Shown: positions 8,020 through 48,964 of the stretch, piece after piece
How positions within the stretch are numbered: position 1 is the first letter of the stretch
Layout: each line of letters opens with the position of its first letter
Origin: Gammaproteobacteria bacterium
Lineage (GTDB): Bacteria > Pseudomonadota > Gammaproteobacteria > Pseudomonadales > Pseudohongiellaceae
Direction: 5' to 3'
Assembly: GCA_030832825.1 (NCBI GenBank)
Contig: JAURIJ010000009.1
Coordinates: 8,902 to 72,901 of the forward strand
DNA length: 64,000 nucleotides
Program-made: the position numbers and the translations under genes
The notes under the pieces: generated by a model
What the model was told of the DNA's origin: nothing
What the model saw: the letters and a program-made list of their open reading frames with translations, nothing else
Databases searched by the model: none

Positions 8020-9090
8020 ATGACGTCAGTTCGCCACGGATTCTTCACCCTCACCGCTCTCGCCGCTGCGCTCGGCGTCAGCCTGCTGCAGGCGCAGCCG
8101 GCAGAACAACCCGCGCCCGAGCCGGTGGATGACACCGCCGCCTTCCAGGCCTGGCTGGCGGATTTTCGCACCGAAGCGCTGAGCCGCGGCATCCGCGCCG
8201 CAACACTGGATGCCATCCTGCCCACCATCGAACAGCAGCGCCGCGTCATCCAGGCCGATCGCGCCCAGGCCGAGTTCGTCGAAACCTATGCGGATTATCT
8301 GGAGCGCGTCAGCCCGCGCCGCATCGAGATGGGCAAGACCCTGTTCGCCGAACAGGGTGCCATGCTGGAGGCAGCTGCCGCTCCCTACCACGTGCAGCCG
8401 CGCTTCGTGGCAGCAGTGCTGGGCATGGAAAGCAACTACGGCACCTTCCCGATCACCGAACCACTGTTCAATGTGGTGGCCACGCTGGCCTTCGACAGCC
8501 GGCGCGGCGAGCAATTCCGCAACGAGCTGTTCGCCGCCTTCGAGATCGTCGACAAGGGCTATGCCACGCCGGACATGATGAAGAGCTCCTGGGCGGGTGC
8601 GCTCGGCGCCCCGCAGTTCATGCCGGGCAGCTATCTGCGTCTGGCGGTGGATCAGGATGGCGACGGCCGCCGCGATCTGTGGAACATGGGTCCGGATGTG
8701 ATCGGTTCCGTGGCCAATTATCTGAACTCCACGGGCTGGCAGGACAATCAGACCTGGGGCCGCGTGGTGAGCCTGCCGCCGGGTGGCGAACAATCCCTGC
8801 CGGCGCCGCAGAACGTGGGACTCGACCCAGACGCCACCTGCCGGCGCTACACCACCATGGGCGCCTGGCGCAGTCTGAGCGATTGGCAGGAACTCGGGGT
8901 GCGCAAGGCCGACGGCACGGACCTGCCCACGCGGCCGCTGGCGGCGGCGCTGATCATCGGGGATGAAGGGGATGACAAGGGCTATCTGGTGTACCGCAAC
9001 TTCTGCTCGCTGCTGCGCTACAACCCGTCGTTCAAGTATGCGCTGGGCGTGAGTCTGCTGTCGGACGCCATCGCCGGCATCGAGGACTGA
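8020..9090 (+). CDS. Lytic murein transglycosylase (MltB / SLT_2 family)
   Basis: ORF track gives 7978..9090. I prefer ATG 8020, preceded by GGAG at 8011, giving signal peptide MTSVRHGFFTLTALAAALGVSLLQAQP. Family motifs: AAVLGMESNYG, GALGAPQFMPGSY, DGDGRRDLW and C-terminal YNPSFKYALGV. Confidence 0.88.
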   Translation: MTSVRHGFFTLTALAAALGVSLLQAQPAEQPAPEPVDDTAAFQAWLADFRTEALSRGIRAATLDAILPTIEQQRRVIQADRAQAEFVETYADYLERVSPRRIEMGKTLFAEQGAMLEAAAAPYHVQPRFVAAVLGMESNYGTFPITEPLFNVVATLAFDSRRGEQFRNELFAAFEIVDKGYATPDMMKSSWAGALGAPQFMPGSYLRLAVDQDGDGRRDLWNMGPDVIGSVANYLNSTGWQDNQTWGRVVSLPPGGEQSLPAPQNVGLDPDATCRRYTTMGAWRSLSDWQELGVRKADGTDLPTRPLAAALIIGDEGDDKGYLVYRNFCSLLRYNPSFKYALGVSLLSDAIAGIED

Positions 9091-9094
9091 AGGC

Positions 9095-11531: not shown

Positions 11532-13178
11532 ATGACCGACAACAAGAAACTGGCCGAAGCCAGCCTGGAGAGCCTTTACCGCATCTTCACCGTCCCGGAA
11601 GCGCCGGATTCCACTCTGGGACTGATCGACCAGTCGATCTCCCGCAACATGGCGGGCTTCCTGCAGGAACACATCGTTGCCGCCGAGCGCGACCTGCAGC
11701 TGATCGAGAAGGACTTCGCCAACCCCCGCATTCCCGACAAGCCGATCTTCGTCTCCGAGCAGATCGACTTCCTGCTGGACAAGGTCGTCGCGCAATCCGT
11801 GCACATCGCCTCGCCCGGCTTCGTGGGCCACATGGCCTCCGCCCTGCCCTACTTCATGCTGCCCCTGGCACGCATCATGACGGCGCTGAACCAGAACCTG
11901 GTCAAGGTGGAGACCTCCAAGGCCTTCACGCCACTGGAGCGGCAGGTGATCGGCATGATCCACCAGCTGGTCTACCAGCAGGACGACGCCTTCTACGAGC
12001 GCTGGATGCACGACCGCAACCACGCCATCGGCAGTTTCTGCTCTGGCGGCACCATCGCCAATCTCACTGCGCTGTGGGCCGCCCGCAATGCACTGTTCCC
12101 GATCACGACCGATTTCGCGGGCATCGGTCAGGAAGGCCTCGCCGCCGGGCTGGTGCAGCAAGGCTATCGCGCCCTGGCGATCGTGGTCTCGGAGCGCGGG
12201 CATTACTCCCTGGGCAAGGCCGCTGACATCCTCGGCATCGGTCGCCGTCAGCTGGTGGCCGTGGAAACCGACGCCCGCAACAAGGTCAAGCCCGCAGAAC
12301 TGGCGCGCCGCTGCGACGAGCTGCAGCGCGAAGGCGTTCGCGTGATGGCGATCGTGGGGGTCGCGGGCACCTCGGAGACGGGCAGTGTCGACCCGCTGGA
12401 AGCACTGGCCGACATCGCCGCCGAACGTGACATCCATTTCCATGTCGACTCGGCCTGGGGCGGCCCCACGCTGTTCTCGCGCACCCACCGCCATCTGCTC
12501 ACGGGCATCGAGCGCGCCGACTCGGTGACCCTGGATGCCCACAAGCAACTGTATGTGCCCATGGGCGCCGGCCTGTGTGTCTTCCGGCGCCCGGAAACGC
12601 TGTCCGCCGTCGAGCACCACGCCGAATACATCATTCGCAAGGGCTCGAAGGATCTGGGCAGTCACAGTGTGGAGGGCTCGCGCCCCGGCATGGCCGTGCT
12701 GGTGCACGCCGGCCTGCACATCATCGCGCGCGAAGGCTACGAGCTGTTGATCGACCAAGGCATCGCCAAGGCCAGGGCATTCGCCGAACGAATCAAGGCC
12801 ACGGACGACTTCGAGCTGATCTCGGAGCCAGAGCTGAACATCCTGACTTACCGCTATCTGCCCGCTGCCGCACGTGAGCTGCTGGCCTCCGACAATCCGC
12901 AGATCCGCCAGCAGGCCAACAGCGTGCTCAACGCTCTGACCCGCAGCCTGCAGAAGACTCAGCGCGGTCTTGGCAAGTCCTTCGTGTCACGCACACAGCT
13001 GACGCCCGAACACCATAAGCGCACACCCATCGTCGTGTTCCGGGTGGTGCTCGCCAACCCACTCACGACACTGGAGATTCTGGACAATATCCTGCAGGAA
13101 CAACGGGAGCTGGCAGCGCGCGCCCCGGTGCTGCAGTTTGTCGAGAAGCTGCAGGCACTGGCGCAGGGCGCGCACTGA
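11532..13178 (+). CDS. PLP-dependent group II decarboxylase, PanP-like (putative aspartate 1-decarboxylase)
   Basis: PLP-lysine context SVTLDAHKQLYVPMGAGLCVF. N-terminal SLYRIFTVPEAPDSTL is typical of the pyridoxal-dependent aspartate decarboxylase clade as I recall it. Start set at ATG 11532 (MTDNKKLAE); the longest ORF (11424) would overlap the divergent promoter region. Confidence 0.75.
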   Translation: MTDNKKLAEASLESLYRIFTVPEAPDSTLGLIDQSISRNMAGFLQEHIVAAERDLQLIEKDFANPRIPDKPIFVSEQIDFLLDKVVAQSVHIASPGFVGHMASALPYFMLPLARIMTALNQNLVKVETSKAFTPLERQVIGMIHQLVYQQDDAFYERWMHDRNHAIGSFCSGGTIANLTALWAARNALFPITTDFAGIGQEGLAAGLVQQGYRALAIVVSERGHYSLGKAADILGIGRRQLVAVETDARNKVKPAELARRCDELQREGVRVMAIVGVAGTSETGSVDPLEALADIAAERDIHFHVDSAWGGPTLFSRTHRHLLTGIERADSVTLDAHKQLYVPMGAGLCVFRRPETLSAVEHHAEYIIRKGSKDLGSHSVEGSRPGMAVLVHAGLHIIAREGYELLIDQGIAKARAFAERIKATDDFELISEPELNILTYRYLPAAARELLASDNPQIRQQANSVLNALTRSLQKTQRGLGKSFVSRTQLTPEHHKRTPIVVFRVVLANPLTTLEILDNILQEQRELAARAPVLQFVEKLQALAQGAH

Positions 13179-13187
13179 GCGGAAGAA

Positions 13188-14150
13188 TCAAGGCAGCGAG
13201 TCGGCCTCGTTTTCCTTGGGCGGGGGCAACAGGTCTTCCTTGCTGACATTCATCATCAGCAACAGAGTGGACCCAACGTAGATGGACGAATACGTGCCGA
13301 TGATGATGCCCAGCGTCAGGGCGGTGGCGAAGCCCTTGATGGAGTCACCCCCGGCGAACAACATGGCCAGCACCACCAGCAACGTGGTGCCTGACGTGAT
13401 GGTGGTCCTGCTCAGTGTCTGATTGAGGGAGATGTTGATCAGCTCGGCCGGCGTGCTCTTGCGCAGCACGCGGAAGTTCTCCCGCACCCGGTCGAACACC
13501 ACGATCTTGTCGTTCACCGAATAGCCAATGATGGCCAGAACTGCCGCCAGCACGGTGAGATCGAATTGCAGCCTGGCCAGCGAGAATACCCCCAGCGTGA
13601 TGATCACGTCGTGCATCAGACCAAGCACCGCCGCAATGGCGAACTTGGACTGAAAACGGGCGCCGACGTAAATCATCACCATGCCCAGAGACACCAGAAT
13701 GCCCATGCCACCACTTTCGGCGAGTTCTTCGCCCACTCGCGGTCCCACGAACTCCATGCGGCGTATCTCGACGTCGGCAGAGGTCCCCGCCTGCAATGTC
13801 GACAGCAACTCCTCACCAAGCACAACGAGCTGGCTGGCCATTTCGACCTCGGAGAGGCTTTCGTCTACCGGCATGCGAATCAGGATGTCCTGATCCGAAC
13901 CAAAGGCCACTACCTGGGCTTCTTCATAACCTGCCGCAGCCAGTTGAGCACTGATCTGGGGCACCGCCACAGGCTCGGAGTACCCTACCTCCACCAGTGA
14001 GCCGCTGGTGAAGTCCAGCCCGAGCTCCAGCGAGTTGATCAGCAGAGATCCAAGCGAGATGAGCACTGCCACTGCAGAGACATACGTGAGCCTGCGGCCC
14101 GTGGTCACGAAGTCAAACGATGTTTTTCCAAACGCCATACCTTTCTCCAA
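13188..14150 (-). CDS. secF: Protein translocase subunit SecF
   Basis: 320-aa ORF with SecF layout and motifs (LGLDFTSGSLVEV, six TM helices), directly downstream of secD. Alternative start ATG 14138. Confidence 0.93.
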   Translation of the reverse strand: MEKGMAFGKTSFDFVTTGRRLTYVSAVAVLISLGSLLINSLELGLDFTSGSLVEVGYSEPVAVPQISAQLAAAGYEEAQVVAFGSDQDILIRMPVDESLSEVEMASQLVVLGEELLSTLQAGTSADVEIRRMEFVGPRVGEELAESGGMGILVSLGMVMIYVGARFQSKFAIAAVLGLMHDVIITLGVFSLARLQFDLTVLAAVLAIIGYSVNDKIVVFDRVRENFRVLRKSTPAELINISLNQTLSRTTITSGTTLLVVLAMLFAGGDSIKGFATALTLGIIIGTYSSIYVGSTLLLMMNVSKEDLLPPPKENEADSLP

Positions 14151-36041: not shown

Positions 36042-36554
36042 ATGTCATTGCTGCACTTGAAGAAAGTCTCACTATCCGGCACTCGCCGCGCGGTCTCGAG
36101 CCTGTGCGCCCTGCTGCTCGTGCTGCTGAGCCCGCTGGCCAGCGCCCAGCATGTCATGACGATCAACTCCAACAGCGACGTGGTCACGGAAACCGCACCC
36201 GTAGACAACGCGGTCCTGGCCGAAGCGCCGGCTGACCTGATGATGCGCTTCAGCACTTATGTGCGCCTGGTGAAACTGGTGCTCAAAGCACCGGGAAACA
36301 CGCCAGTGGATATCGGCTTTCGCTACAACCCGGATGCCAGCCGGGTCTTCTTCTGGGACCTGCCACCACTGCCGGCAGCGGACTACTACACCGTGGAATG
36401 GGCCGCCATCGACCCGGTGAATTTCGTGGCGCGGGGAAGCTTCAGTTTTTCCTTCGGCCCGGATGCAAGTCCGCCCTCTGAACTGATCCCACAGGACGAG
36501 GAGCTGGCCCCCGTCATCGTGCCGGACTTCCGCCTGATCGATCAGGGGTTCTGA
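36042..36554 (+). CDS. CopC-domain-like periplasmic protein
   Basis: Start at ATG 36042 (MSLLHLKK...LASAQH signal peptide). The pattern ..APADLMMRFS...VKLVL....DYYTVEWAAID....RGSFSFSF follows the CopC beta-sandwich signature (G.Y.V.W......G.F.F.V), but the usual His ligands are not evident. Confidence 0.65.
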   Translation: MSLLHLKKVSLSGTRRAVSSLCALLLVLLSPLASAQHVMTINSNSDVVTETAPVDNAVLAEAPADLMMRFSTYVRLVKLVLKAPGNTPVDIGFRYNPDASRVFFWDLPPLPAADYYTVEWAAIDPVNFVARGSFSFSFGPDASPPSELIPQDEELAPVIVPDFRLIDQGF

Positions 36555-36925
36555 GCAGCACGTCTCGCGGCTGCGCGCCCTGGCGCACGTCGCAGCGTGA
36601 CCATGATGGCGCCGGTATTGCCCTCGTCATGGTCGAAGTCCAGTATCTCGCCACTCATCGCCAGCCAGCTCAGCTGGCGCATGACTTCGTCGCGAATCAC
36701 CCCTCGCCCGACAGCAAGACGCACCCCGACGGCATGACTCCGTCGGCAATCCTGCAACGCGTGCTCCAGCTTTGCCATGGCCTGAGCCACCGTTTCATGC
36801 TGATGCGCGATGTCCCGATGCAGCACGGAGCCATCCGTCTGCTCGTCCAGCAGCGCGTCGCATTTTGGGCAAGTCAGAACCCCTGCAGTCACCCGCATGC
36901 CACAGCCAAGGCACTCCGCTGCCAT
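36542..36925 (-). CDS. Zinc-ribbon + Smr-like domain protein
   Basis: 127-aa ORF with N-terminal CLGCG...CPKCD ribbon, then DIAHQHETVAQAMAKLEHAL.......VRLAVGRGVIRDEVMRQL, resembling the Smr DLHG...A......iihGkG layout. Family call is tentative. Confidence 0.5.
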   Translation of the reverse strand: MAAECLGCGMRVTAGVLTCPKCDALLDEQTDGSVLHRDIAHQHETVAQAMAKLEHALQDCRRSHAVGVRLAVGRGVIRDEVMRQLSWLAMSGEILDFDHDEGNTGAIMVTLRRAPGRAAARRAAQNP

Positions 36926-37194: not shown

Positions 37195-37470
37195 ATGAAA
37201 AGTCATCAATGGGATGATATCGCTGATACCTCCAAGGACTTTTTTGATTCGGCTGCCTTTATTCCAGAGACTGAGATTGATGAGGCGAACGACAAGCGCG
37301 TGCACAAGCGCCGTCTGACCGAGCTTCGTCGCCGCACGGAAGAACGCTTGGACTGGAAGCGCATGTATGGCGACCTGCAGTTCGAGGAAGATGGCAACGA
37401 TCAGAGCTTCAAGGACAGTTACGAAGTCGACGATTACGACGACTACGACGACAATCTCGACGACCACTGA
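37195..37470 (+). CDS. Small highly acidic protein (C-terminal DDYDDYDDNLDDH tail)
   Basis: 91 aa from ATG 37195. A central basic helix (KRVHKRRLTELRRRTEERLDWKR) is flanked by D/E-rich segments. It may belong to the small PA3496-like family, but I cannot confirm this. Confidence 0.55.
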   Translation: MKSHQWDDIADTSKDFFDSAAFIPETEIDEANDKRVHKRRLTELRRRTEERLDWKRMYGDLQFEEDGNDQSFKDSYEVDDYDDYDDNLDDH

Positions 37471-37491: not shown

Positions 37492-37516
37492 CAGCCTCTG
37501 CCATCTGCAGAGGCTG
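37492..37516 (+). other. 10-bp hairpin downstream of the acidic-protein gene
   Basis: CAGCCTCTGC-catct-GCAGAGGCTG, 22 nt after the stop. No T-tract follows, so it is not a canonical intrinsic terminator. Confidence 0.5.
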
Positions 37517-37660: not shown

Positions 37661-38419
37661 ATGACGTATTGTGTGGCAATCGCAGTAGATGCAGGCATGG
37701 TCTTTTGCTCTGATTCCCGCACCAATGCGGGCATCGACCAGGTCAGCACCTATGGCAAGATGTACAGATTCGGAGTCGAGGGCCAGCGTCAGTTCGTCAT
37801 CCTGACGGCTGGCAACCTCGCCACCACCCAGGCCACCATCGCCCAGGTCAAGCGCGACATCAAGGAGCGCGCCAACGTCAGCCTGCTCACGGTGGAAACC
37901 ATCAGCGACGCGGCCGACTATCTTGGCGATGTCAGCCTGGCTCAGCAGGAAAAGCACGCCAAGCTGGGCAACACCTTCGAAGCCAGCTTCATCATTGGCG
38001 GCCAGATTGCCAACAGCAAGCACCGCATCATGCTGGTCTACCCGCAGGGCAATCACATCACCAGCTCCAAGGACACGCCCTATCTGCAGATCGGCGAGAG
38101 CAAGTACGGCAAGCCGATTCTCGACCGTATCCTGACGCCCGACCTGAACCTGGACACCTGCGCCCTGTGCGCGCTAGTCTCCATGGACTCCACCATGCGC
38201 AGCAATCTGAGCGTTGGGCCGCCCATCGAGACGCTGGTCTACCGCACGGATACCCTGACACTCAACGAGCCGCTGCGCTTCGACGAGAACAGCGAATTCC
38301 TGCGCGAACTCAAGCGCAGCTGGGATCAGCGATTGAAGGATGCCTTCAGACAGATGCCTCCATTTGCGTGGGCATCGAGCTGGGATAAATCCGCTGATGA
38401 ACGTAGCGGAGTTTCCTGA
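37661..38419 (+). CDS. Anbu (ancestral beta subunit) proteasome-type Ntn peptidase
   Basis: 252-aa ORF starting MTYCVAIAVDAGMVFCSDSRTNAG, so Thr2 becomes the N-terminal nucleophile with no propeptide. It has the proteasome beta-fold pattern and lies beside ATP-grasp/alpha-E/transglutaminase genes. Confidence 0.9.
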   Translation: MTYCVAIAVDAGMVFCSDSRTNAGIDQVSTYGKMYRFGVEGQRQFVILTAGNLATTQATIAQVKRDIKERANVSLLTVETISDAADYLGDVSLAQQEKHAKLGNTFEASFIIGGQIANSKHRIMLVYPQGNHITSSKDTPYLQIGESKYGKPILDRILTPDLNLDTCALCALVSMDSTMRSNLSVGPPIETLVYRTDTLTLNEPLRFDENSEFLRELKRSWDQRLKDAFRQMPPFAWASSWDKSADERSGVS

Positions 38420-39425
38420 GCGTCATTTCGGAGTGAACAAAGGGGTAGGCGTCTTCCAGACCCATGCTGCGATTGAGCGCATTCATGGCAACGGAAACCC
38501 GTGACCACTGCCACAGACACCATTCGATGTCGGGCTGACGTCGCAGGTCCATGACGCCGCCCGGCACCAGGCCATAGTCTGACGCTGTCTCCAGCGTATC
38601 CATCATGTGCAGATAGTGCGCCCAGCACTCCGCCCAGTCCTCCAGCGGATGCGCCTGGGCGTAGGCACTGATCATCTCGGGCCACTTCTTTGGCGGCATG
38701 GGCTGCGTGTAATGGCGAGCCAGCGCGGCGTCGTAGTCCTCCCGCTCGTCCCCGAACAGCTCCCTGAAACCCTCGAGTGCCCCCTGCCGCACCACACACT
38801 GCTCGAAGAAGTAATGCCCGCTTTCGTGACGCAGGTGCCCCAGCAGGGTTCTGTAGGACTCGCCCAGCCCCTGCCGCATCTTCTCGCGCTCGACATGGTC
38901 AGCCTCGGCGAGATTCACCGTGATGAGCCCCTGCCAATGCCCGGTCAGCACATGCTGCTCCAGCACTTTCGGATTGGAACGCTGATCTTCAAGAAACGCG
39001 AAGGCAAGACCCTCGCTCTGCGACTCGGACTTGGACATCACGGGCAGCCCCATGGCCAGCAAGGTGAACAGCAGACGACGCTTGGCCTGCTCCAGCCGCG
39101 CCCAGCGCTCGCGACGCAGCGGTGCCTGGGTGCTCGATTCGAGGCCAGGCACGATGTGATTCAGGCGGCAGGAGAGGCAGTATTGCTGATCAGAGTCACT
39201 GACCAGCCAATTGCAGACATGAAAGTCGAGGTCATTGCGGCACAGACGGTATGTGAGCTCGGTATCGGCACAGCGCCACGAGCCCCCGGCGGGGTCCGCG
39301 TGATCCGGCTCGAGTGCCAGCAGTTCTCCGCGCTGAGGATCGAATCCGAGGCGACGCCTGCACGCCGTGCACAGGGTGTTCTCGAAGAATACTCCCTGGC
39401 CGCAGACGCAGGTGAAATTTCTCAT
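38346..39425 (-). CDS. Zinc-ribbon + zincin-like metallopeptidase ('putative zinc-binding peptidase' family)
   Basis: 359-aa ORF with N-terminal Cys clusters (CVCG...CTAC, CLSC) and the HExxH motif LGHLRHESGHYFFE. ATGA overlap with the alpha-E stop (39422..39425). Confidence 0.85.
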   Translation of the reverse strand: MRNFTCVCGQGVFFENTLCTACRRRLGFDPQRGELLALEPDHADPAGGSWRCADTELTYRLCRNDLDFHVCNWLVSDSDQQYCLSCRLNHIVPGLESSTQAPLRRERWARLEQAKRRLLFTLLAMGLPVMSKSESQSEGLAFAFLEDQRSNPKVLEQHVLTGHWQGLITVNLAEADHVEREKMRQGLGESYRTLLGHLRHESGHYFFEQCVVRQGALEGFRELFGDEREDYDAALARHYTQPMPPKKWPEMISAYAQAHPLEDWAECWAHYLHMMDTLETASDYGLVPGGVMDLRRQPDIEWCLWQWSRVSVAMNALNRSMGLEDAYPFVHSEMTLRKLRYVHQRIYPSSMPTQMEASV

Positions 39426-40390
39426 GCGGACTGTTGTTGACCGCTGACCACTGGCAGAAACCAGGTCTGCGTGATGCGGGCATGCACTTCGGCAATCTGG
39501 ATCTGCAGCGCATCAATGTATGCGAGCAGGCCCTGCTGCAACAGCAGCGGGATGTCCGCGTCATTGGCCATGGCCTGCACCCGGGCGACTTCCACCAGGG
39601 CAGCGCCGTTGTTCGGCAAGGCCTGCAGACAGGACTCAAGCTTGGCGAGACTGTGCACGACCGAGCGCGGAAACTGACGATCCTGCAACAGGAAGGTGAC
39701 GACATCCTCGCCGTTCACGCGATCGAGCACATGCTGGCGATACATCTGGTAGGCGCTGAGCGAGTTGAGCACCGCCATCCAGATCATGTTCTCGAAGGGC
39801 TCGATCTGCTCGGACTTCACGCCCTGGGTGAGCCCCGGCAGCAGCGTGACGGAGCCGACATCGACGATGCGCGTCGTCATGTCCGCACGCTCGAGACTGC
39901 GCGCGATGCGGATGAAGTTGTAGCCACTGTTGTGACTCATGGTGCCCGCGAACAGACCAGCGATCTGCTGGCAATGTGCGATGATCTGATTCAGCAGATG
40001 GTGCCGTGGCCCGCGGGCCACGCCCTTGCTGGCATTCTCCTTGGCGAACAGATACAGATTGTTGATCTGCTCCCAGGCTTCCGAGGGAATGATCTCGCGC
40101 GTGGTGCGGGCGTTCTCGCGCGCCATGGAAAGCGAACTGAGAATGGAGCTGTAATTGCTGGTGTCCGAGAGCAGGAAGCGGATGACGGAGCGCTCGTCGG
40201 GCGCCTGATACTTGTCGGCGAACTCCGCATGACTGCCGGTGATGTCCACCAGCGTGTGCCAGCCGATCTTGGCCCCACGCGGAAGATCCAGCAGCAGTGT
40301 GGAATAGACGTTCAGAAGTCGCGCCGTGTTTTCGGCACGCTCGAGATATCTGCCCAGCCAGTAGATACGTTCGGCAACCCGCGACAGCAT
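39422..40390 (-). CDS. Alpha-E domain protein
   Basis: 322-aa ORF starting MLSRVAERIYWLGRYLERAENTARLLNV, the hallmark alpha-E N-terminus. It lies 3 nt downstream of the ATP-grasp gene. Confidence 0.9.
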   Translation of the reverse strand: MLSRVAERIYWLGRYLERAENTARLLNVYSTLLLDLPRGAKIGWHTLVDITGSHAEFADKYQAPDERSVIRFLLSDTSNYSSILSSLSMARENARTTREIIPSEAWEQINNLYLFAKENASKGVARGPRHHLLNQIIAHCQQIAGLFAGTMSHNSGYNFIRIARSLERADMTTRIVDVGSVTLLPGLTQGVKSEQIEPFENMIWMAVLNSLSAYQMYRQHVLDRVNGEDVVTFLLQDRQFPRSVVHSLAKLESCLQALPNNGAALVEVARVQAMANDADIPLLLQQGLLAYIDALQIQIAEVHARITQTWFLPVVSGQQQSA

Positions 40391-40393
40391 GAC

Positions 40394-41842
40394 TCAGCGC
40401 TCCTCTTCCGTGACGATCCAGGTGTCCTTGCTGCCGCCGCCCTGTGAAGAATTGACGACATAGGACCCCTTCACCATCGCCACGCGTGTCAGCCCTCCAG
40501 GCGTGACATAGATGTCGCGGCCCTGGAGGATGAACGGTCGCAGATCGATGTGGCGCGGCTCTGCCCCGCGCTCGCCCAGCACAGGCGCCGTCGACAGGGA
40601 GATGAGCGGCTGCGCCATGTAGTTGCGTGGATTGGCCTTGATGCGGCGCGCAAACTCCTCGCGCTCCTTCTTGCTGGCCTGCGGCCCCATCAGCATGCCG
40701 TATCCACCGGATTCGTTGGCGGGCTTGACCACCAGCTTGTCGAGATTTTCCAGCACGTACTTACACTGCTTCTCGTCGATGCACAGATAGCTGGGGACAT
40801 TCTCCAGAATGGGCTCTTCACCGAGGTAATACTTGATCATGGCCGGCACATAGGTGTAGATGACCTTGTCATCGGCCACCCCAGCGCCAGGCGCATTCGC
40901 CAGGGCCACATTGCCCTTGAGCCACGCACGCATGAGACCCGGCACCCCCAGCACGGAATCAGGGTGGAACACCTGCGGATCGAGGAACATGTCATCGATG
41001 CGGCGGTAGATCACATCCACCCGAGACAGGCCGTTGATGGTGCGCATGTAGACGCAGTCGTCCTCCACTACTAGATCACCGCCTTCCACGAGTTCGGCGC
41101 CCATGCGCTGAGCCAGGAAGGAATGTTCAAAATAGGCGGAGTTGTAGATGCCCGGCGTCAGCACGACAACTTCGGGATAATCGAGCGGACGCGGCGAGAT
41201 GGCAGCCAGCATGTCGAACAATTGCGTGGTGTATTCGGTGATCGGGAGAATGTTGTAGTTCTCGAACAACTCCGGGAACACGCGCTTGGTGACCTTGCGA
41301 TTCTCCAGCATGTAGGACACGCCGGAGGGCACGCGCAGATTGTCTTCCAGCACATAGAACTGGCCGTTGGTGTCACGGATCAGATCAGTGCCGCAGATGT
41401 GCGCCCAGACATCGAAGCGCGGCTTCATGCCCACGCATTCGTTGCGGAAATTGGCGGACTTCGCAATCAACTCCGCAGGCACCACCTTGTCTTTCAGGAT
41501 CTTCTGATCGTTGTAGACATCGTGAATGAAACAGTTCAATGCACGCAGGCGTTGCTCAAGGCCTTTGCTTGTCGAGCGCCATTGTGTTTCCGTGATGATT
41601 CTGGGAATAATGTCGAACGGCCACTCGCGATCGATGTTGCCCGCTTCGCTGTAAACCGTGAACGAAATTCCCATCGCCTTGATGGCAAGTTCAGCAGCTG
41701 TCTTGCGCTGCTGCAGCTCTTCGTTCTTGAGGGAAGCGAGATAACGGGCGAGGATGCGACCAGACTTTCGAGCATGCCCTGGCGATCTGATCAGCTCGTC
41801 ATAGAACGCTCCGGGATCATATGTTTTCCAGTCGATACGCAT
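40394..41842 (-). CDS. Circularly permuted type-2 ATP-grasp protein
   Basis: 482-aa ORF with typical blocks: FTVYSE...REWPFD.IPR, VLEDNLRVPSGVSYMLENR, VVKPANESGGYGML and C-terminal NSSQGGGSKDTWV-like. Confidence 0.9.
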   Translation of the reverse strand: MRIDWKTYDPGAFYDELIRSPGHARKSGRILARYLASLKNEELQQRKTAAELAIKAMGISFTVYSEAGNIDREWPFDIIPRIITETQWRSTSKGLEQRLRALNCFIHDVYNDQKILKDKVVPAELIAKSANFRNECVGMKPRFDVWAHICGTDLIRDTNGQFYVLEDNLRVPSGVSYMLENRKVTKRVFPELFENYNILPITEYTTQLFDMLAAISPRPLDYPEVVVLTPGIYNSAYFEHSFLAQRMGAELVEGGDLVVEDDCVYMRTINGLSRVDVIYRRIDDMFLDPQVFHPDSVLGVPGLMRAWLKGNVALANAPGAGVADDKVIYTYVPAMIKYYLGEEPILENVPSYLCIDEKQCKYVLENLDKLVVKPANESGGYGMLMGPQASKKEREEFARRIKANPRNYMAQPLISLSTAPVLGERGAEPRHIDLRPFILQGRDIYVTPGGLTRVAMVKGSYVVNSSQGGGSKDTWIVTEEER

Positions 41843-41861
41843 ATGCGAGTCACATTACCTT

Positions 41862-44800
41862 ATGACAATTAAAGTAGCAATACACCACCAGACGACGTAT
41901 AAATTCGACCGTCTTGTACCGATTTTTCCACATGTCGTGAGACTGCGGCCTGCACCACATTGTCGCACGCCCATCAGCGCCTACTCGCTCAAGATTTCTC
42001 CTGCCACGCATTTCATCAACTCGCAGCAGGATCCCTTTTCGAACCATTTGGCACGTCTTGTGTTTCCAGAACAAGCGCGCGAACTTTCCATCACGGTCGA
42101 ACTGATTGCCGACATGACCGTGATCAATCCCTTCGACTTTTTCGTCGAGGAAAGTGCCGAACATTTCCCATTTCAATACGACGCGCAATTGTCACGTGAT
42201 CTGGCACCTTATCTTGAAGTCGAGACACCGGGACCGCAGATGCGGGAGTGGCTGAAAGGCGTCAACGCGTCGCGCCAACCCATCGTGAGTTTCCTCACTG
42301 GCGAGAATTCCCGCACGCAGCGCGGCATCAATTACATCATCCGCATGGAGCCCGGCGTGCAGAGCTGCGAGGAATCGCTGGAGCGCAAGCTGGGTTCCTG
42401 CCGCGACAGCGCCTGGCTGCTGGTGCAGACCTTGCGCCACATGGGACTGGCGGCACGTTTCGCGTCGGGCTACCTCGTGCAGCTGAGTGCCGATATCCGA
42501 GCCATTGATGGCCCTTCCGGCCCGGGCGAGGATTTCACCGATCTGCATGCCTGGACGGAAGTGTTCATTCCCGGCGCCGGCTGGATCGGCCTCGATCCGA
42601 CCTCCGGACTGCTGGCCGCTGAAGGCCATATTCCTCTGGCCTGCACGCCGGACCCGATCAGCGCCGCGCCCATTTCGGGCGCGACCGGTGTCTGCGAGGT
42701 CGAGTTCTTCCACGAAAACAGCGTCACCCGGATTCACGAGGACCCGCGTGTCACCAAGCCCTACACCAACGAGCAATGGCAGACCATCGATGCCCTCGGC
42801 CAGCGCGTGGACGAGGAGCTGGCCGCGAACGATGTGCGGCTGACCGTCGGCGGCGAACCCACCTTCATCTCCATCGACGACATGCAGAGCGCGCAGTGGA
42901 ACACGGCCGCTCTCGGCAAGGACAAGCGCAGGCTGGCGGGTGAGCTGCTGCTGGCGCTGAAGAAGCATTATGGACCCGAAGGTATAATTCACATCGGCCA
43001 GGGCAAGTGGTACCCGGGCGAACCCCTGCCGCGCTGGGCGCTGGGGCTGTTCTGGCGCATCGACGGCAAGGCGCTCTGGCACAATCCCCAGCTGCTGGCC
43101 GATGATCGCATTCCCGGCCCCTGCAGCAGTCGCCAGGCCGCCGGTTTCATCACCGCGCTGGCTCGCCGCCTCGGCATCAGTCCGCGCTACGTGCTGCCGG
43201 CCTTCGAGAACAAGGAGCATTACCTGCGCCGCGAGGCGGAACTGCCCGCAAACGTCAGCCTGTGGGACAACAAGCTGCTCGATCCGCTGGAAAGTGCGCG
43301 CTTGAAGCGCGTGTTCAGCCACGGGCTCGACAAGGAAAGCGGCTATGTGCTGCCGCTCGGCTCGACGGTGCACGAGGGCGGCATTCGCTGGCTGAGCTCG
43401 CGCTGGTATTTCCGCAAGGAGAAACTCACGCTGATTCCGGGTGACTCGCCCATCGGCCTGCGCCTGCCGCTCGACAGCCTGCCCTGGCAGGAGCCTGACG
43501 CGCTGGCGCAGGAACATGCACCTGACCCCTTCGCCCCGCTCGCCGAGCTGCCCTATCCGCTGCTGCAGGAAGAGGACAGCGAAGCCCTCGACGCTGGGGA
43601 ATCCAGTGACGGGCGCATCTTCCACACCGCGCTGTGCGCGGAAGTGCGGGATGGTCGGCTGTACCTGTTCCTGCCGCCGCAGACAGACCTGGAGCGCTAC
43701 GTGGCCCTGATCGCCGCCATCGAGGCGACCGCGGAGGCACTGACCTGCCCCGTGGTGCTGGAAGGCTACGAACCACCGCGCGATCCGCGCCTGCAGAAGA
43801 TGCTGATCACGCCGGACCCGGGCGTGATCGAAGTGAATGTGCAGCCCGCCTCCAGCTGGCCGGAGCTGACGCATATCGTGCACACCCTCTACGAAGAGGC
43901 GCGGCAGACGCGTCTGGGCACCGAGAAGTTCATGCTGGATGGACGCCACACCGGCACTGGCGGCGGCAATCATGTGACACTCGGCGCCGCGAAGCCCGAG
44001 GACAGCCCCTTCCTGCGCCGCCCCGATCTGCTGGGCAGCCTGCTGCGTTTCTGGCAGAACCACCCGAGCCTGTCCTATCTTTTCTCGGGCCAGTTCATCG
44101 GCCCTACCAGTCAGGCACCGCGAGTGGATGAAGCCCGTGACGACAATCTCTATGAACTGGAGATTGCCCTGCAGCAGCTAGAGAGCGAGACGAAAGGGCA
44201 GTACTGGCTCGTCGACCGCATCCTGCGCAATTTCCTGGTGGATCTCACAGGCAACACGCACCGCGCCGAGTTCTGCATCGACAAGCTGTATTCGCCGGAC
44301 AGCGCCAGCGGGCGTCTGGGGATCGTCGAGTTCCGCAATTTCGAGATGCCGCCGCACTGGCAGATGAGCGCCCTGCAGGTGCTGCTGCTGCGCACACTGG
44401 TGGCCCATTTCTGGCAGAAGCCTTACACACGACCTCTGATCAACTGGGGCACCGAGCTGCATGACCGCTTCATGCTGCCGCACTTCGTGTGGGAGGACCT
44501 GGGCTGGGTGATCGACGATCTGAACAAGGCGGGCTATCCGCTGCAACTGGACTGGTTCGCGCCCTTCCAGGAATTCCGCTTCCCGCACTACGGCACCATC
44601 CATGTGGCCGGCATCCAGCTGGAGCTGCACCGAGCCATCGAGCCATGGCATGTGCTGGGCGAGGAGTCCACCGGACAAGGCACCGCGCGCTACGTGGATT
44701 CCTCGGTGGAGCGCCTGCAGATCCGCACGCGCAACATGACGGGCAACCGTTTCATCGTGACCTGCAACGGGCGCAAGGTGCCGCTGCGCAGCACCGGCAC

Positions 44801-45128
44801 CGAGGGCGAGTTCGTCGGGGGAGTTCGTTACAAGGCCTGGGCGCCATGGTCAGCGCTGCATCCCACCATCGGTGTGCATTCGCCCCTGGTGATCGACGTG
44901 GTGGACATCCATCACCAGCGTTCTCTGGGCGGCTGCACCTATCACGTGGCACACCCGGGAGGTCGCAACTACGAGACTTTCCCGGTCAATGCCAACGAGG
45001 CGGAAGCGCGCCGCGGGGCGCGCTTCTGGCAGCATGGGCATACCCAGGGAGTGATGACGCTGGATCTGGGCGAGCCGCATGAAGCGCATCCCTACACGCT
45101 GGACATGCGCTTCCGGGCTCGCCGCTGA
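41862..45128 (+). CDS. Large transglutaminase-family protein (Bact_transglu_N + transglutaminase core + DUF2126-like C-terminal region)
   Basis: 1088-aa ORF with N-terminus MTIKVAIHHQTTYKFDR...VRLRPAPH. Cys/His/Asp contexts GSCRDSAWLL, DLHAWTEVF and GLDPTSG, followed by a long C-terminal extension. Confidence 0.9.
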   Translation: MTIKVAIHHQTTYKFDRLVPIFPHVVRLRPAPHCRTPISAYSLKISPATHFINSQQDPFSNHLARLVFPEQARELSITVELIADMTVINPFDFFVEESAEHFPFQYDAQLSRDLAPYLEVETPGPQMREWLKGVNASRQPIVSFLTGENSRTQRGINYIIRMEPGVQSCEESLERKLGSCRDSAWLLVQTLRHMGLAARFASGYLVQLSADIRAIDGPSGPGEDFTDLHAWTEVFIPGAGWIGLDPTSGLLAAEGHIPLACTPDPISAAPISGATGVCEVEFFHENSVTRIHEDPRVTKPYTNEQWQTIDALGQRVDEELAANDVRLTVGGEPTFISIDDMQSAQWNTAALGKDKRRLAGELLLALKKHYGPEGIIHIGQGKWYPGEPLPRWALGLFWRIDGKALWHNPQLLADDRIPGPCSSRQAAGFITALARRLGISPRYVLPAFENKEHYLRREAELPANVSLWDNKLLDPLESARLKRVFSHGLDKESGYVLPLGSTVHEGGIRWLSSRWYFRKEKLTLIPGDSPIGLRLPLDSLPWQEPDALAQEHAPDPFAPLAELPYPLLQEEDSEALDAGESSDGRIFHTALCAEVRDGRLYLFLPPQTDLERYVALIAAIEATAEALTCPVVLEGYEPPRDPRLQKMLITPDPGVIEVNVQPASSWPELTHIVHTLYEEARQTRLGTEKFMLDGRHTGTGGGNHVTLGAAKPEDSPFLRRPDLLGSLLRFWQNHPSLSYLFSGQFIGPTSQAPRVDEARDDNLYELEIALQQLESETKGQYWLVDRILRNFLVDLTGNTHRAEFCIDKLYSPDSASGRLGIVEFRNFEMPPHWQMSALQVLLLRTLVAHFWQKPYTRPLINWGTELHDRFMLPHFVWEDLGWVIDDLNKAGYPLQLDWFAPFQEFRFPHYGTIHVAGIQLELHRAIEPWHVLGEESTGQGTARYVDSSVERLQIRTRNMTGNRFIVTCNGRKVPLRSTGTEGEFVGGVRYKAWAPWSALHPTIGVHSPLVIDVVDIHHQRSLGGCTYHVAHPGGRNYETFPVNANEAEARRGARFWQHGHTQGVMTLDLGEPHEAHPYTLDMRFRARR

Positions 45129-45131
45129 GTG

Positions 45132-46013
45132 TCAGCCCGCGTTGCGCAGGGCGGCGATGCGGGCGGTAAGCGGCGGGTGGGACATCAGCAGGCCGGCCAG
45201 GGAACCCATGCCCTTGCTGTTGATGCCGAAGGCCACCAGTTCATCCGGCAGGGCAGCCGCCTGCCCCCTCTGCAGCCGCTCCAGGGCGGCGATCATGTTC
45301 TGCCGGCCCGCCAGGCGGGCACCGCCCGCATCGGCGCGGAATTCACGCTGACGGCTGAACCACATCACGATGATGGACGCCAGGATGCCCAGCACCAGCT
45401 CCGCCACGATGGTGGTGATCCAGAACGCCGGACCATGCCCGCGCTCGGTCTTGAAGACCACGCGGTCCACGAAGTGACCGATCACCCGCGAGAAGAAGAT
45501 CACGAAGGTGTTCACCACGCCCTGAATGAGCGTGAGCGTCACCATGTCGCCATTGGCCACGTGACTCACTTCATGAGCCAGCACCGCCTCAGCCTCCGGG
45601 CGCGTCATGTTCTGCAGCAGCCCGGTGCTCACCGCCACCAGGGAACTGTTGCGCGAGGCGCCCGTGGCGAAGGCGTTCACCTGGGGCGAATCGAAGATGG
45701 CCACCTCGGGCATGCCGATGCCGGCTTCCTGGGCCTGACGACGCACTGTCTCCACCAGCCACTGCTCGGTGCTGTTGGCGGGCGAGGCAATGACACGGGC
45801 GCCGGTGCTGCGCTTGGCCATCCACTTGGACATGGCCAGCGAGATGAAGGCGCCGCCGAAGCCGAAGACGGACGAGAAGATCAGCAGGCTGTTCAGATCC
45901 AGCCCGGCGCCCTGTTCGTCGAGAATGCGTTCCACACCGAGCAGCCGCAGCGTGATGCTCAGGACAACAATGATGGCCAGGTTGGTCATCAGGAACAGTG
46001 CTATGCGTTTCAT
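45132..46013 (-). CDS. htpX: Protease HtpX (M48 zinc metalloprotease)
   Basis: 293-aa ORF with [19 protein letters not shown] and the HEVSH zinc motif ([14 protein letters not shown]). Confidence 0.93.
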
Positions 46014-46037
46014 GGCGCGTCGAAGCCTCCTCGAGTG

Positions 46038-47411
46038 TCAGCCCAGCAGAGACTCGATGTCGTCTGCCCGGGCAGGTGGATGGATCAGGTGCTGTTCCGC
46101 GTCATAGAGCGGATCGCTGCGTGGCATCTCGCGGAAGATCAGGTCAAAGTGCTTCTGCACCCGTCCCAGGTTCACCACCGAGATGCCACTGGAGAAACCG
46201 AACCAGACGTACAATCCATTCATGTTGCGGAAAATGGCAGGGATATGATGGGGGCCGGCAATGGTGCCTTCAAGGTAATGCTGGTAGAGGATCGGGATGT
46301 CGTCCAGCGTCACCTTGCCCACGAACAGCATGGGTATGATCTCCGGCACGCCGGCGTTGATGGCGCTGCGGATGAAGTTCACGTTCTCGACGAAGCCACG
46401 CAGATACGACAGGTCCTTGGTGAACGCCGAGCCTCCGGCGAGCATGCCGCCCCGGAATACCCGCTGGGTGATGCGATAGCTTTCGCGTTCGGTGAGACCG
46501 CGGTTCACGAAGTGGCGATAGACCTCGATGAAATCCGCGCCCTGCTCCGCCATGTCCACAGCCACCACGCGATCGCTCACCCGCAGCGCACGCTGCGGGT
46601 AGGAGCTGAATGTGAGGGTTTCCATCAGCACGGCCAGGCCTTCCTGACACGCCGTCACCCGGGGTGAACCCACGCTGAGCCAGCTGGCCCAGGGCTGGCG
46701 GCGCCCGTTCAGCGTGGTGCCCACGTGCACCCAGCCCTCGTGGACCTCCAGGATCTGCAGGTCGAACTCGGAGAAGTCGGAATCCTGGTTGATCTTGATG
46801 TAGTCACCGCCGGCCGCCGCGTCGGACACGATGCCGTCGCTTAGCATCACGCGGATATCCCCGGCCGGAAAATAGTTCTGCAGACGCTGACGCAAGAGTC
46901 TGACGGCATCGGCCGCCGCGATGGTCTTGCCGTAGGGGCGGCTCATGTGTTCGGCCGCGGGCAGAGAGAAGATCTGGCAGAGTTTCTCGCCCAGCTTGAG
47001 CAGCGTCTTGCGGTCACCGCGCAGCCGGTCGGAGGCCGAGCCGTACAGTTCGCGGCTGATCTGCCCGAAGGCTGACTGTCCGCGGTTCTTCAGCAGGTCG
47101 ATCACCAGCAGGTACTGCTCGATGGTGGCGCACAGGATGCTGCCCAGACCGTCGTGGGCGCCGAGCTGGCGCTGCACATCCTCACGCAGTTCCCGAAAAC
47201 GTGCAGCGAGCTGGTCAGGCTGGAAGTTCAGGGCGATGGCCTCGTAGTAGGCCAGATCAACCGGTGGCAGGCGCGTGCCCTTGCCGGCGATGAAGTCCTG
47301 CTCGAAACGCGCAGGCCACTTGATGGCATCGAGTATCCGGATGGGCTGCTGCAGCGCGATCAGTCGATCCGAGAGCGTCCTGACGCGCTGGCGATACTCC
47401 GAGGGGTTCAT
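46038..47411 (-). CDS. DUF1704 / QEGLA-motif protein (MATCAP-like putative metallocarboxypeptidase)
   Basis: Start at ATG 47411, with ATGA overlap on the TerC-gene stop. The literal QEGLA motif is present ([14 protein letters not shown]), and an HExxxH motif in [11 protein letters not shown]. The longest ORF (to 47657) would run antisense-free into the upstream gene and is Arg/Pro-rich junk. Confidence 0.85.
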
Positions 47412-48964
47412 CCGATATACAGCTCCTGCTGCAGGACACGGGAAATCTGCACCAGCGCGATACGCTGCTCCTCGAGGGCGAGGACCTGGAAGCTGAAGCC
47501 CTCCAGTTCCAGAATCGCGCCCACCTCGGGCAGGCCGTCGAACTTGCTCATCAGGAAACCGGCCAGCGTGGCGAAGTCGTCGATGTCGGCGTCGAACAGG
47601 CCCGTTTCCAGAACGCGGGACAGTTCGTGCAGGTCGGCGTGGCCAGCAACGCGCCACTGCCCCTCCTCCAGCGCCTCGATGGCGGGCGTCTCGTCCTCGT
47701 CGGGGAACTCGCCCGCGATGGCCTCGAACACGTCGATGGGCGTGATCAGGCCGGCGATGGTGCCGTACTCATCCACCACCAGCACCAGCTGGCCCCTGGA
47801 GCGACGCAGTGTCTCGATCAGGGGCAGCACGGCGATGGAATCCGGCACATAGATGGGCTTGCGCAGGGCGTCGCGCAGCGTGATGCGGCCGTTGACGGCC
47901 AGATCATTGAGCAGATCCTTGGCGCGGGCGATGCCCACGATCTCATCCAGGCTGCCCTTGCAGACCGGGAAGAAGCTGTGCGGCGTCTCGATGAGCATGG
48001 CACGGGTGGTGCCCACGTCGTCTTCCAGGTCGACCCAGGAGATGTCGGTGCGTGGCGTCATCAGCGAGCGCACGGAACGCTCGGCCAGTGTCAGCACGCC
48101 GGTGACCATGTTGCGCTCGGCCACATGGAAGGCGGCCTCTTCCTCGGCGGCGGCCTTCTCGTCCACGGTTTCCGGCTGATCATAGGCACGTCCGCCCAGC
48201 AGGCTGAGCACCGCGGCGGCCGTGCGCTCGCGCAAGGGGCGGCGAGCCTCGTTCTTCTGCCGGTTGCGGTTCGCCACCTGGTTGAAGAACTCGATGGTGA
48301 TGGAAAAGCCGATGGCGGCGTAGAGATAGCCCTTGGGAATGTGGAAGCCGAAACCATCGGCCACCAGGCTCAGGCCGATCATCAGCAGGAAGCTCAGGCA
48401 CAGCACCACGACGGTCGGGTGCTTGTCGACGAACTCGGTCAGCGGCTTGGACGCCAGCAGCATGAGGGAGACGGAGATCACCACCGCCGTCATCATCACA
48501 TAGATGTTGTTGACCATGCCGACCGCCGTGATCACGGCGTCAAGCGAGAACACGGCATCCAGCACCACGATCTGCGACACCACCAGCCAGAAGCCGGCAT
48601 AGACACGGTTTTCCAGATGCACGCGCGCGGACCCCTCCAGGCGCTCGTGCAGTTCGGTCGTGGCCTTGAACAGCAGGAACAGGCCCCCGAACAACAGGAT
48701 CAGGTCGCGTCCGGAGAACGGCACCGTGAAGACAGTGAACAAGGGCGTGGTCAGCGTCACCAGCCAGGAGACAATGCTGAGCAGACCGAGCCGCATGATG
48801 ACGGCCAGTCCCAGCCCGATGATGCGGGCCTTGTCACGCTGATGCGGGGGAAGTTTGTTCGCCAGGATGGCGATGAAGACGAGATTGTCGATGCCCAGCA
48901 CCACCTCGAGAATGATCAAGGTGATGAGGGCGACCCATAACGAAGGGTCCAACAGGAATTCCAT
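47408..48964 (-). CDS. TerC-family membrane protein with CBS pair and CorC/HlyC C-terminal domain (YoaE/YegH-like)
   Basis: 518-aa ORF with [17 protein letters not shown] (TerC), tandem CBS-like segments and a C-terminal transporter-associated domain. Confidence 0.9.

Follow-up and report, generated by a model that had tools for sequence, protein, structure and literature searches.

An Anbu gene cassette with an accessory zinc peptidase and a transglutaminase-DUF2126 fusion: a recurring sub-type of a predicted amide ligation and hydrolysis system

The canonical Anbu operon is a string of four co-directional genes encoding an ATP-grasp protein, an Alpha-E protein, a small transglutaminase (TGase), and Anbu itself (PMC6376114, PMC3235984). 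The first three belong to the families COG2308, COG2307, and COG1305, respectively, and the operon is exemplified by P. aeruginosa PA1733, P. putida PP_2685/PP_2688, and Yersinia bercovieri (PMC3235984, PMC6376114, PMC5666114). We confirmed this co-directional order in Klebsiella and Ralstonia replicons. Here, we describe a cassette of five adjacent genes at positions 37661 to 45128 of a 64,000-nucleotide (nt) stretch of DNA, hereafter the window, from contig JAURIJ010000009.1 of a gammaproteobacterium of the Pseudohongiellaceae. The cassette encodes Anbu, an Alpha-E protein, a circularly permuted (CP) ATP-grasp protein, a TGase fused to the domain DUF2126, and a zinc-ribbon peptidase of the Peptidase_Mx family (hereafter Mx). 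With a probability of roughly 0.6, we read these genes as one functional cytoplasmic cassette of the CP-ATP-grasp/Alpha-E/TGase/Anbu family, which is predicted to couple amide ligation to hydrolysis, with Mx as an accessory member.

All four canonical families are present in the window, and the likeness extends to their details: Alpha-E immediately follows ATP-grasp, the catalytic residues (checked in Anbu and the TGase) are intact, Anbu lacks a propeptide and carries Anbu-1-like S1 residues, and the cluster contains no AAA+ unfoldase. Unlike in the canonical operon, Anbu does not end a co-directional string but is convergent, the TGase carries a fused DUF2126 and is divergently transcribed, and Mx occupies the third position; the co-directional set of ATP-grasp, Alpha-E, small TGase, and Anbu is not what the window holds. 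A preliminary description of the window had called the locus a variant of the canonical operon with a convergent Anbu and a divergent large TGase. The contrast with the Klebsiella and Ralstonia order bears this out, but the variant is not unique, as all five genes are arranged in the same way in L006-L008, L090, and L094 (L001-L096 are our labels for the compared genome loci and contigs). The window ATP-grasp and Anbu are 50% and 41-43% identical, respectively, to canonical-operon proteins, and 64% and 49% identical to those of a DUF2126-type cluster in Acidithiobacillus caldus. The window cassette is a recurring sub-type, with a zinc peptidase, of the kind of system predicted in 2008-2009. 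Its marks are a TGase fused to DUF2126, an Anbu gene that is not co-directional with the ligase genes, and a separate Anbu/ATP-grasp clade.

Other systems invite comparison. Iyer, Abhiman, Burroughs, and Aravind reportedly predicted in 2009 a peptide-tagging system that combines a CP ATP-grasp, a CP glutamine-synthetase-like ligase, an NTN-hydrolase peptidase, and a novel alpha-helical domain. That component list would be the same as the window's if DUF2126 is the glutamine-synthetase-like ligase, the window adding a TGase domain; the predicted ligation followed by peptidase action is the reading that we adopt for the window cassette. The Pup-proteasome system of Actinobacteria comprises the glutamine-synthetase-like ligase PafA, the depupylase Dop, and Mpa with the 20S proteasome. 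By analogy, it shares with the window an ATP-dependent carboxylate-amine ligase, an amidase or peptidase, a protease of the proteasome family, and a link to survival when nitrogen is lacking. It differs in that neither a Pup-like tag gene, a PafA or Dop homologue, nor an AAA+ unfoldase lies in or next to the cassette, and in that Anbu forms an open split ring, whereas the 20S barrel is closed. The window cassette is not a member of the Pup-proteasome system, and the likeness is confined to its possible mode of action. The Burkholderia cenocepacia cluster I35_5080-5083 groups ATP-grasp (DUF404/407), Alpha-E (DUF403), a TGase-like protein, and a large TGase-containing protein (PMC5491218). As listed, it has no Anbu, no Mx, and an extra small TGase, and the window for its part has no recognizable sigma-54-type promoter. 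Our literature search, which did not cover Iyer et al. 2009, found no paper that describes the DUF2126/Mx sub-type, the convergent, overlapping Mx/Anbu pair, or the presence/absence variants presented below, and no mention of Peptidase_Mx (PF15887) in an Anbu/ATP-grasp context.

Anbu, a proteasome-like Ntn hydrolase of 252 amino acids, is encoded at 37661-38419 on the plus strand. Mx, a zinc-ribbon and Peptidase_Mx zincin of 359 amino acids, follows at 38346-39425 on the minus strand, as do the 322-amino-acid Alpha-E protein at 39422-40390 and the ATP-grasp protein at 40394-41842. The plus-strand gene at 41862-45128 encodes the TGase-DUF2126 fusion of 1088 amino acids. A scan for open reading frames (ORFs) recovered all five at exactly the coordinates of the preliminary description, and an independent gene caller made five identical calls on identical metagenome contigs. 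The assignment of the five families held up as well, since each was matched strongly in searches with profile hidden Markov models (HMMs) or against the PDB. The best named relatives are proteins of Pseudohongiellaceae and other Gammaproteobacteria. No signal-peptide-like N terminus was found in the translations of any of the five cassette proteins.

The junctions between these genes are tight. The gap between ATP-grasp and Alpha-E is 3 nt, with GAGGAG preceding the Alpha-E start, and Alpha-E and Mx share an ATGA overlap that can be read directly from the sequence. The genes for ATP-grasp, Alpha-E, and Mx, the last of which ends this co-directional string, are tightly translationally coupled, as had been claimed. 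Just 19 nt (41843-41861) separate the divergent start codons of ATP-grasp and TGase-DUF2126, so the promoters of these two genes must sit within each other's coding sequence. The spacing is similar in L006-L008, as judged from the ends of tblastn matches, and is ~300-440 nt in L090 and L094. At the other border, Mx and Anbu overlap 3'-3' by 74 nt (38346-38419), and their mRNAs must therefore be complementary at the ends. Given the 19-nt spacer and the 74-nt overlap, all regulatory signals must lie inside coding sequence.

The window Anbu scores modestly against the Pfam proteasome model (PF00227, E 1.4e-5) because Anbu is divergent from that model, and it matches solved Anbu structures strongly: 5loy at 3.3e-71 (residues 2-237), 5lox at 1.1e-61, and 5nyw at 8.5e-60. 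The 5loy alignment reaches the C-terminal region, to residue 237, in a family defined by an open split-ring dodecamer that the C-terminal helix H5 stabilizes. Its N terminus, MTYCVAI, places Thr immediately after the start Met, so that no propeptide has to be removed, as the preliminary description had proposed. Thr2, Asp18, and Lys33 (Thr1, Asp17, and Lys32 of the mature protein) are invariant in 48/48 homologues. The S1 pocket of P. aeruginosa Anbu is formed by T20/F30/T48/L52/S55 (PMC5666114); by our own numbering, the mature window protein carries T20/Y30/T48/L52/T55, and these pocket residues resemble the Anbu-1 type. Residue 32 (37754-37756), directly before the catalytic Lys33, is Gly (STYGKMY). 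In the 48 compared homologues, this position is mostly Ser (STYSKM), otherwise Thr, Pro, Lys, or Arg, and never Gly. A sequencing error seems unlikely because the identical contigs L001 and L002 carry a 252-amino-acid Anbu call at the same position.

Both ATP-grasp and Alpha-E match their families over the full profiles. ATP-grasp covers the full CP_ATPgrasp_2 profile (PF14403, 9.9e-170, positions 1-374 of 374) and aligns with PDB 3n6x at 1.8e-164 over residues 30-477. Alpha-E likewise spans all of PF04168 (7.6e-91, positions 1-294 of 294) and displays the N-terminal ER motifs VAERIYW and YLERAEN; a sequence search returned no solved relative. Alpha-E is an obligate companion of ATP-grasp and, wherever both genes were detected, lies directly downstream of it. 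In the Yersinia operon, the ATP-grasp protein frees inorganic phosphate from ATP (PMC6376114).

The 1088-amino-acid protein, previously described as a giant TGase, does contain a TGase domain, but that name is incomplete. An N-terminal TGase-like domain (residues ~1-276; Bact_transglu_N PF08379, 1.9e-23; Transglut_core PF01841, 3.8e-15) is followed by DUF2126 (residues ~277-1083), which matches PF09899 at E 0 and 1290 bits over profile positions 2-826 of 826. The protein is more than a TGase because DUF2126 is annotated in Pfam as a putative amidoligase, which would be the second in the cassette. The TGase residues C180 (GSCRDSAW), H229 (DLHAWTEVF), and D245 (GLDPTSG), reported earlier as intact, are invariant in 42 sequences, and Foldseek matches this domain to the TGase-like cysteine protease 3isr (E 1.4e-8). 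DUF2126 has no PDB match at the sequence level; its AlphaFold2 (AF2) model, with a predicted local distance difference test (pLDDT) score of only 66, yields weak Foldseek matches to GlnA (8v1y and 9n4x; E 0.2-0.4, probability 0.57-0.69).

Mx combines a double zinc ribbon (Zn_ribbon_DZR_6 PF10005, 2.4e-23) with a Peptidase_Mx domain (PF15887, 3.9e-91). The zinc motif HESGH (200-204), noted before in this protein, is invariant in 62 sequences, as are the ribbon cysteines C6, C8, C19, C22, C62, C71, C83, and C86. Sequence searches detected no solved relative. With its AF2 model (pLDDT 85.8), the best PDB folds in Foldseek are weak matches to M34-type zincins (PPEP-1/Zmp1 and anthrax lethal factor, E ~0.05), and we regard Mx as a predicted zincin without a close solved relative. 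We considered and rejected the idea that Mx is a carboxypeptidase of the MATCAP or another type, an "eraser" to the ATP-grasp "writer": Foldseek returned weak M34 matches and no MATCAP.

Comparative genomics shows that these genes belong together. In a sample of 80 genome loci of the closest Mx relatives, taken with 10-kb flanks onto which the other four families were mapped, the same type of ATP-grasp lies within 10 kb of Mx at 41 loci, Anbu at 39, and TG-DUF2126 at 9. Two layouts stand out. In the first, that of the window (ATP-grasp>Alpha-E>Mx> <Anbu), ATP-grasp and Alpha-E sit directly upstream of Mx at 24 loci, 22 of which also have the convergent Anbu. Its carriers are contigs assigned to Pseudomonadales, Marinimicrobium, Gilvimarinus, Porticoccaceae, and Wenzhouxiangellaceae. 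The second (Mx> <Anbu ATP-grasp>Alpha-E>) was found at 11 loci, including Pseudidiomarina, Paraglaciecola, and a Nitrospirota contig. In a TGase-centred view of six look-ups of TG-DUF2126 homologues on long contigs, Anbu, ATP-grasp, and Alpha-E adjoin TG-DUF2126 in all six. L089 and L091 have the window layout minus Mx, and L092 and L093 have the order Anbu>TG-DUF2126> <Alpha-E<ATP-grasp. On an A. caldus megaplasmid, the order is Anbu>TG-DUF2126>ATP-grasp>Alpha-E, ~3 kb from glnL-ntrC, and L042 and L061 show further shufflings. Altogether, the cassette families are found together in at least five different orders and orientations and in related and distant genomes alike.

Several of these loci have peculiarities of their own. 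The A. caldus megaplasmid locus (L086; NZ_CP005987.1, 1645-16237) has two Anbu paralogues, with insertion sequence elements nearby; one paralogue, beside glnL-ntrC, is annotated just as "hypothetical protein." TG-DUF2126 appears split there, with the TGase core at 8803-9627 and DUF2126 from 11061. In L054 (Pseudoduganella umbonata) and L061 (a Saccharospirillum metagenome-assembled genome), a single Mx has a canonical-like ATP-grasp/Alpha-E/small-TGase set on one side and a TG-DUF2126 set with a second ATP-grasp on the other. Around Mx in these two loci are up to three ATP-grasp subtypes, with ~65%, 52%, and 33% identity to that of the window.

Close relatives with and without the block establish its limits. 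L091, the closest relative outside L006-L008 (Anbu 86% identical), shares with the window the flanking genes for an AMP-binding protein, a small ORF, HtpX, and a MATCAP peptidase. In the Pseudohongiella nitratireducens-like L095, this backbone is intact, the whole Anbu-to-TGase block is absent, and only 43 nt separate the small ORF from HtpX (L095 9001-9317). L096 has the block minus Mx, and its TGase (12793-13668, 291 amino acids) corresponds to the N-terminal domain of the large protein, DUF2126 having been lost. Because this backbone comparison of L091, L095, and L096 delimits the block, the cassette boundaries are those of the coordinates given at the outset. The Anbu-to-TGase block is gained or lost as a unit. 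In rough neighbour-joining trees, the Anbu and ATP-grasp proteins of these cluster types fall in one clade, apart from canonical-operon proteins, and the window ATP-grasp groups with Mx/DUF2126-linked ATP-grasps. Several subclades match between the Anbu and ATP-grasp trees, and loci that lack Mx branch from within groups of Mx-containing loci. Together, the five genes form one real, co-inherited cassette.

Presence or absence between close relatives in a fixed backbone is a pattern also typical of accessory islands, and the block might on that account be an island for phage defence or a mobile one, unconnected with housekeeping proteolysis, or its adjacency might be accidental. We judge either to be very improbable. 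No flanking repeats accompany the block; its borders are free of integrase, transposase, and tRNA genes; in GC content it resembles its surroundings; and PADLOC matched none of the five proteins. Accidental adjacency in particular is rejected because the block is co-inherited, the families recur together across several proteobacterial orders and on a contig assigned to Nitrospirota, and the Anbu and ATP-grasp subclades match.

The position of Mx within this unit merits closer scrutiny. In 36 of the 80 Mx loci, across both layouts, Mx and Anbu lie side by side in convergent orientation, and their 3' ends were computed as overlapping in 24, two of these overlaps being of implausible length. The exact 74-nt overlap of the window recurs in L006, L009, L010, L013, and L021, the Mx proteins of which are only 46-58% identical to the window's. 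Cultured carriers of the pair include Marinimicrobium locisalis ISL-43, Gilvimarinus sp. 2_MG-2023, Pseudidiomarina halophila BH195, and Glaciecola sp. XM2. Mx is an accessory component of the cassette, missing from the otherwise equivalent cassettes in L089, L091, L092, L093, and L096. Some 30 loci with ATP-grasp, Alpha-E, Mx, and Anbu have no TGase within 10 kb by a sensitive TGase-core HMM. In those genomes, Mx does occupy the TGase slot, as the preliminary description had supposed for the window; in the window itself, where L091 has the same cassette minus Mx, Mx is an addition to a TGase-containing core.

So persistent a pairing raises the question of whether Mx and Anbu are a protease pair in their own right, with Mx as partner, activator, or processing enzyme, working independently of the ligases and adjoining them for co-regulation only. 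The pair does persist where ATP-grasp and Alpha-E lie on the other side, no ligase was detected near the Mx and Anbu genes of L058, and Anbu alone is inactive in vitro (PMC6376114). Against two such loosely connected modules, Anbu accompanies the ligases without Mx in L089, L091-L093, L096, and the whole canonical operon family, Mx accompanies the ligases without Anbu in L018, L059, L061, L063, and L068, and in the window, Mx is translationally coupled to Alpha-E. We consider this arrangement unlikely. Scarcely less doubtful, in our estimation, is a more specific role for Mx within a single cassette, as the missing partner of Anbu. In such a two-protease machine, whether physical or functional, Mx might recognize or pre-process substrates modified by ATP-grasp or activate an inert Anbu ring, with the small TGase in that role elsewhere. 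On this reading, the complementary mRNA ends could also balance the expression of the protease against that of the ligase operon.

If the five genes are one functional cassette, how might it work? The steps that follow derive from known family chemistry and from what has been published on the expression of homologues. Under a shortage of fixed nitrogen, ATP-grasp, acting with Alpha-E, would activate a carboxylate as an acyl-phosphate and join it to an amine, the substrate being a peptide or protein; a second ligation may fall to DUF2126. Three modules of hydrolase type (the Cys-His-Asp domain of the TGase-like kind, the Thr1 split ring of Anbu, and the HExxH zincin Mx) would then cleave or trim amide- or isopeptide-linked substrates, with Mx and the small TGase as interchangeable or additive hydrolases next to Anbu. 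The net outcome would be tag-directed turnover and the recycling of amino-acid nitrogen.

The nitrogen link comes from homologous clusters. In P. putida, expression of PP_2685 (Anbu) and PP_2688 (ATP-grasp) rises on nitrate relative to ammonium (PMC8050072), and the operon is among the genes most strongly induced under nitrogen limitation in that organism (note in PMC3235984; PMC8050072). The B. cenocepacia cluster I35_5080-5083, including the large TGase, is induced by nitrogen limitation in an NtrC- and sigma-54-dependent manner (PMC5491218), the A. caldus cluster is a neighbour of glnL-ntrC, and the abundance of these domains tracks that of urea-metabolism domains in marine metagenomes (PMC3597751). 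The statement in the preliminary description that the physiological trigger is unknown thus does not hold for homologues, for which nitrogen limitation, acting through NtrC/sigma-54, is the known trigger in P. putida and B. cenocepacia (PMC8050072, PMC5491218, note in PMC3235984). Because homologous clusters respond in this way, we favour a tag-and-hydrolyse function in amino-acid recycling that is induced by nitrogen limitation. At the window cassette, such control is an extrapolation from homologues, as site scans found no sigma-54 or NtrC site nearby above chance.

The genes might instead serve a small-molecule or peptide-metabolite pathway, in which the two ligases build and the three hydrolases break a small amide-linked compound rather than tag proteins. 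Candidates for the compound are a gamma-glutamyl-amine, a short non-ribosomal peptide, or a nitrogen-storage oligomer; in another version, the system would scavenge exogenous peptides or amines for their nitrogen. The only solved ATP-grasp relative, 3n6x, was deposited as a "putative glutathionylspermidine synthase," DUF2126 weakly matches glutamine synthetase, and neither a tag gene nor an unfoldase is present. The NtrC regulon that includes the homologues is otherwise devoted to nitrogen scavenging, with urease and transporters for urea, polyamines, and dipeptides (PMC5491218). Anbu, however, is a large ring with 12 active sites that binds proteasome inhibitors, in P. aeruginosa at Thr1, and the authors of that work argue for processive protein degradation (PMC5666114). 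The double zinc ribbon of Mx is, in our own reading, more typical of macromolecule recognition, and the cassette has no conserved transporter or amino-acid-modifying enzyme. A metabolite pathway is the foremost alternative to tag-directed turnover, a possible one that we nonetheless find clearly the less likely of the two.

Several considerations temper our confidence in a ligation-plus-hydrolysis cassette. To our knowledge, nobody has reported a substrate, product, or tag for any protein of this family, and no candidate tag gene was found within the cassette. A glutamine-synthetase-like fold of DUF2126 is not confirmed at a pLDDT of 66 and Foldseek E values of 0.2-0.4. About a third of the sampled Mx genes are solitary, and no conserved neighbour was found among the 26 such "lonely" loci examined, so Mx may also have an independent role. 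The scans for sigma-54 and NtrC sites near the cassette returned nothing above shuffled and window-wide backgrounds. Finally, Anbu in purified form did not act as a peptidase and did not bind its operon partners in a stable complex (PMC6376114).

The genes that directly flank the cassette belong to the backbone. Upstream, at 37195-37470 on the plus strand, is a highly acidic ORF of 91 amino acids. It carries the conserved motif LTELRRRxEERLDxKR and ends in an acidic tail rich in aromatic residues, DDYDDYDDNLDDH; a stem-loop with a perfect 10-bp stem lies behind it at 37492-37516. This ORF is kept upstream of Anbu in 12 related loci. We considered it as a candidate tag or substrate but rejected it as a component of the system on two grounds: it holds the same backbone position in L095, where the whole cassette is absent, and L018 retains it with an AMP-ligase gene after the loss of Anbu. 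A homologue of the ORF is a borderline case, scoring 21.1 bits against the NCBIfam model PA3496 ("putative envelope integrity protein"), the cutoff of which is 22; the window protein itself has no match. Still further upstream, the minus-strand gene at 36542-36925 encodes 127 amino acids, with a CxxC...CxxC zinc ribbon at the N terminus and an Smr domain (PF01713, E 1.3e-6) at the C terminus; its conservation is limited to L006-L008, the nearest relatives. On the other side of the cassette lie three co-directional minus-strand genes (45132-48964). HtpX (45132-46013) has its stop codon 3 nt from that of the TGase. Next come a MATCAP/QEGLA-family metallopeptidase (46038-47411), which overlaps the following gene by 4 nt, and TerC-CBS-CorC (47408-48964). 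The MATCAP/QEGLA peptidase is a bacterial homologue of the tubulin tyrosine carboxypeptidase family and adjoins HtpX also in L091, L095, and L096. As backbone genes, it and HtpX were rejected as members of the cassette. An Rfam search found no elements at the cassette.

To a specialist, the window locus is an unsurprising addition to a puzzle known from 2008 rather than a new kind of system, and taken alone, it makes the question no more directly testable than the operons of model organisms. What it offers are testable handles, chiefly Mx as a possible partner of Anbu or substitute for the TGase. Comparison around the locus defines a distinct and widespread sub-type of the Anbu system, whose natural presence/absence variants delimit the functional unit precisely. 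Since the zincin is a recurrent and sometimes TGase-replacing neighbour of Anbu, the third component is suggested to be a hydrolase rather than a cross-linker. If Mx were the partner of Anbu, the lack of Anbu activity in all in vitro assays to date would be accounted for. And if a tag-and-degrade pathway for nitrogen recycling does operate through these genes, it would represent a proteobacterial analogue of pupylation.

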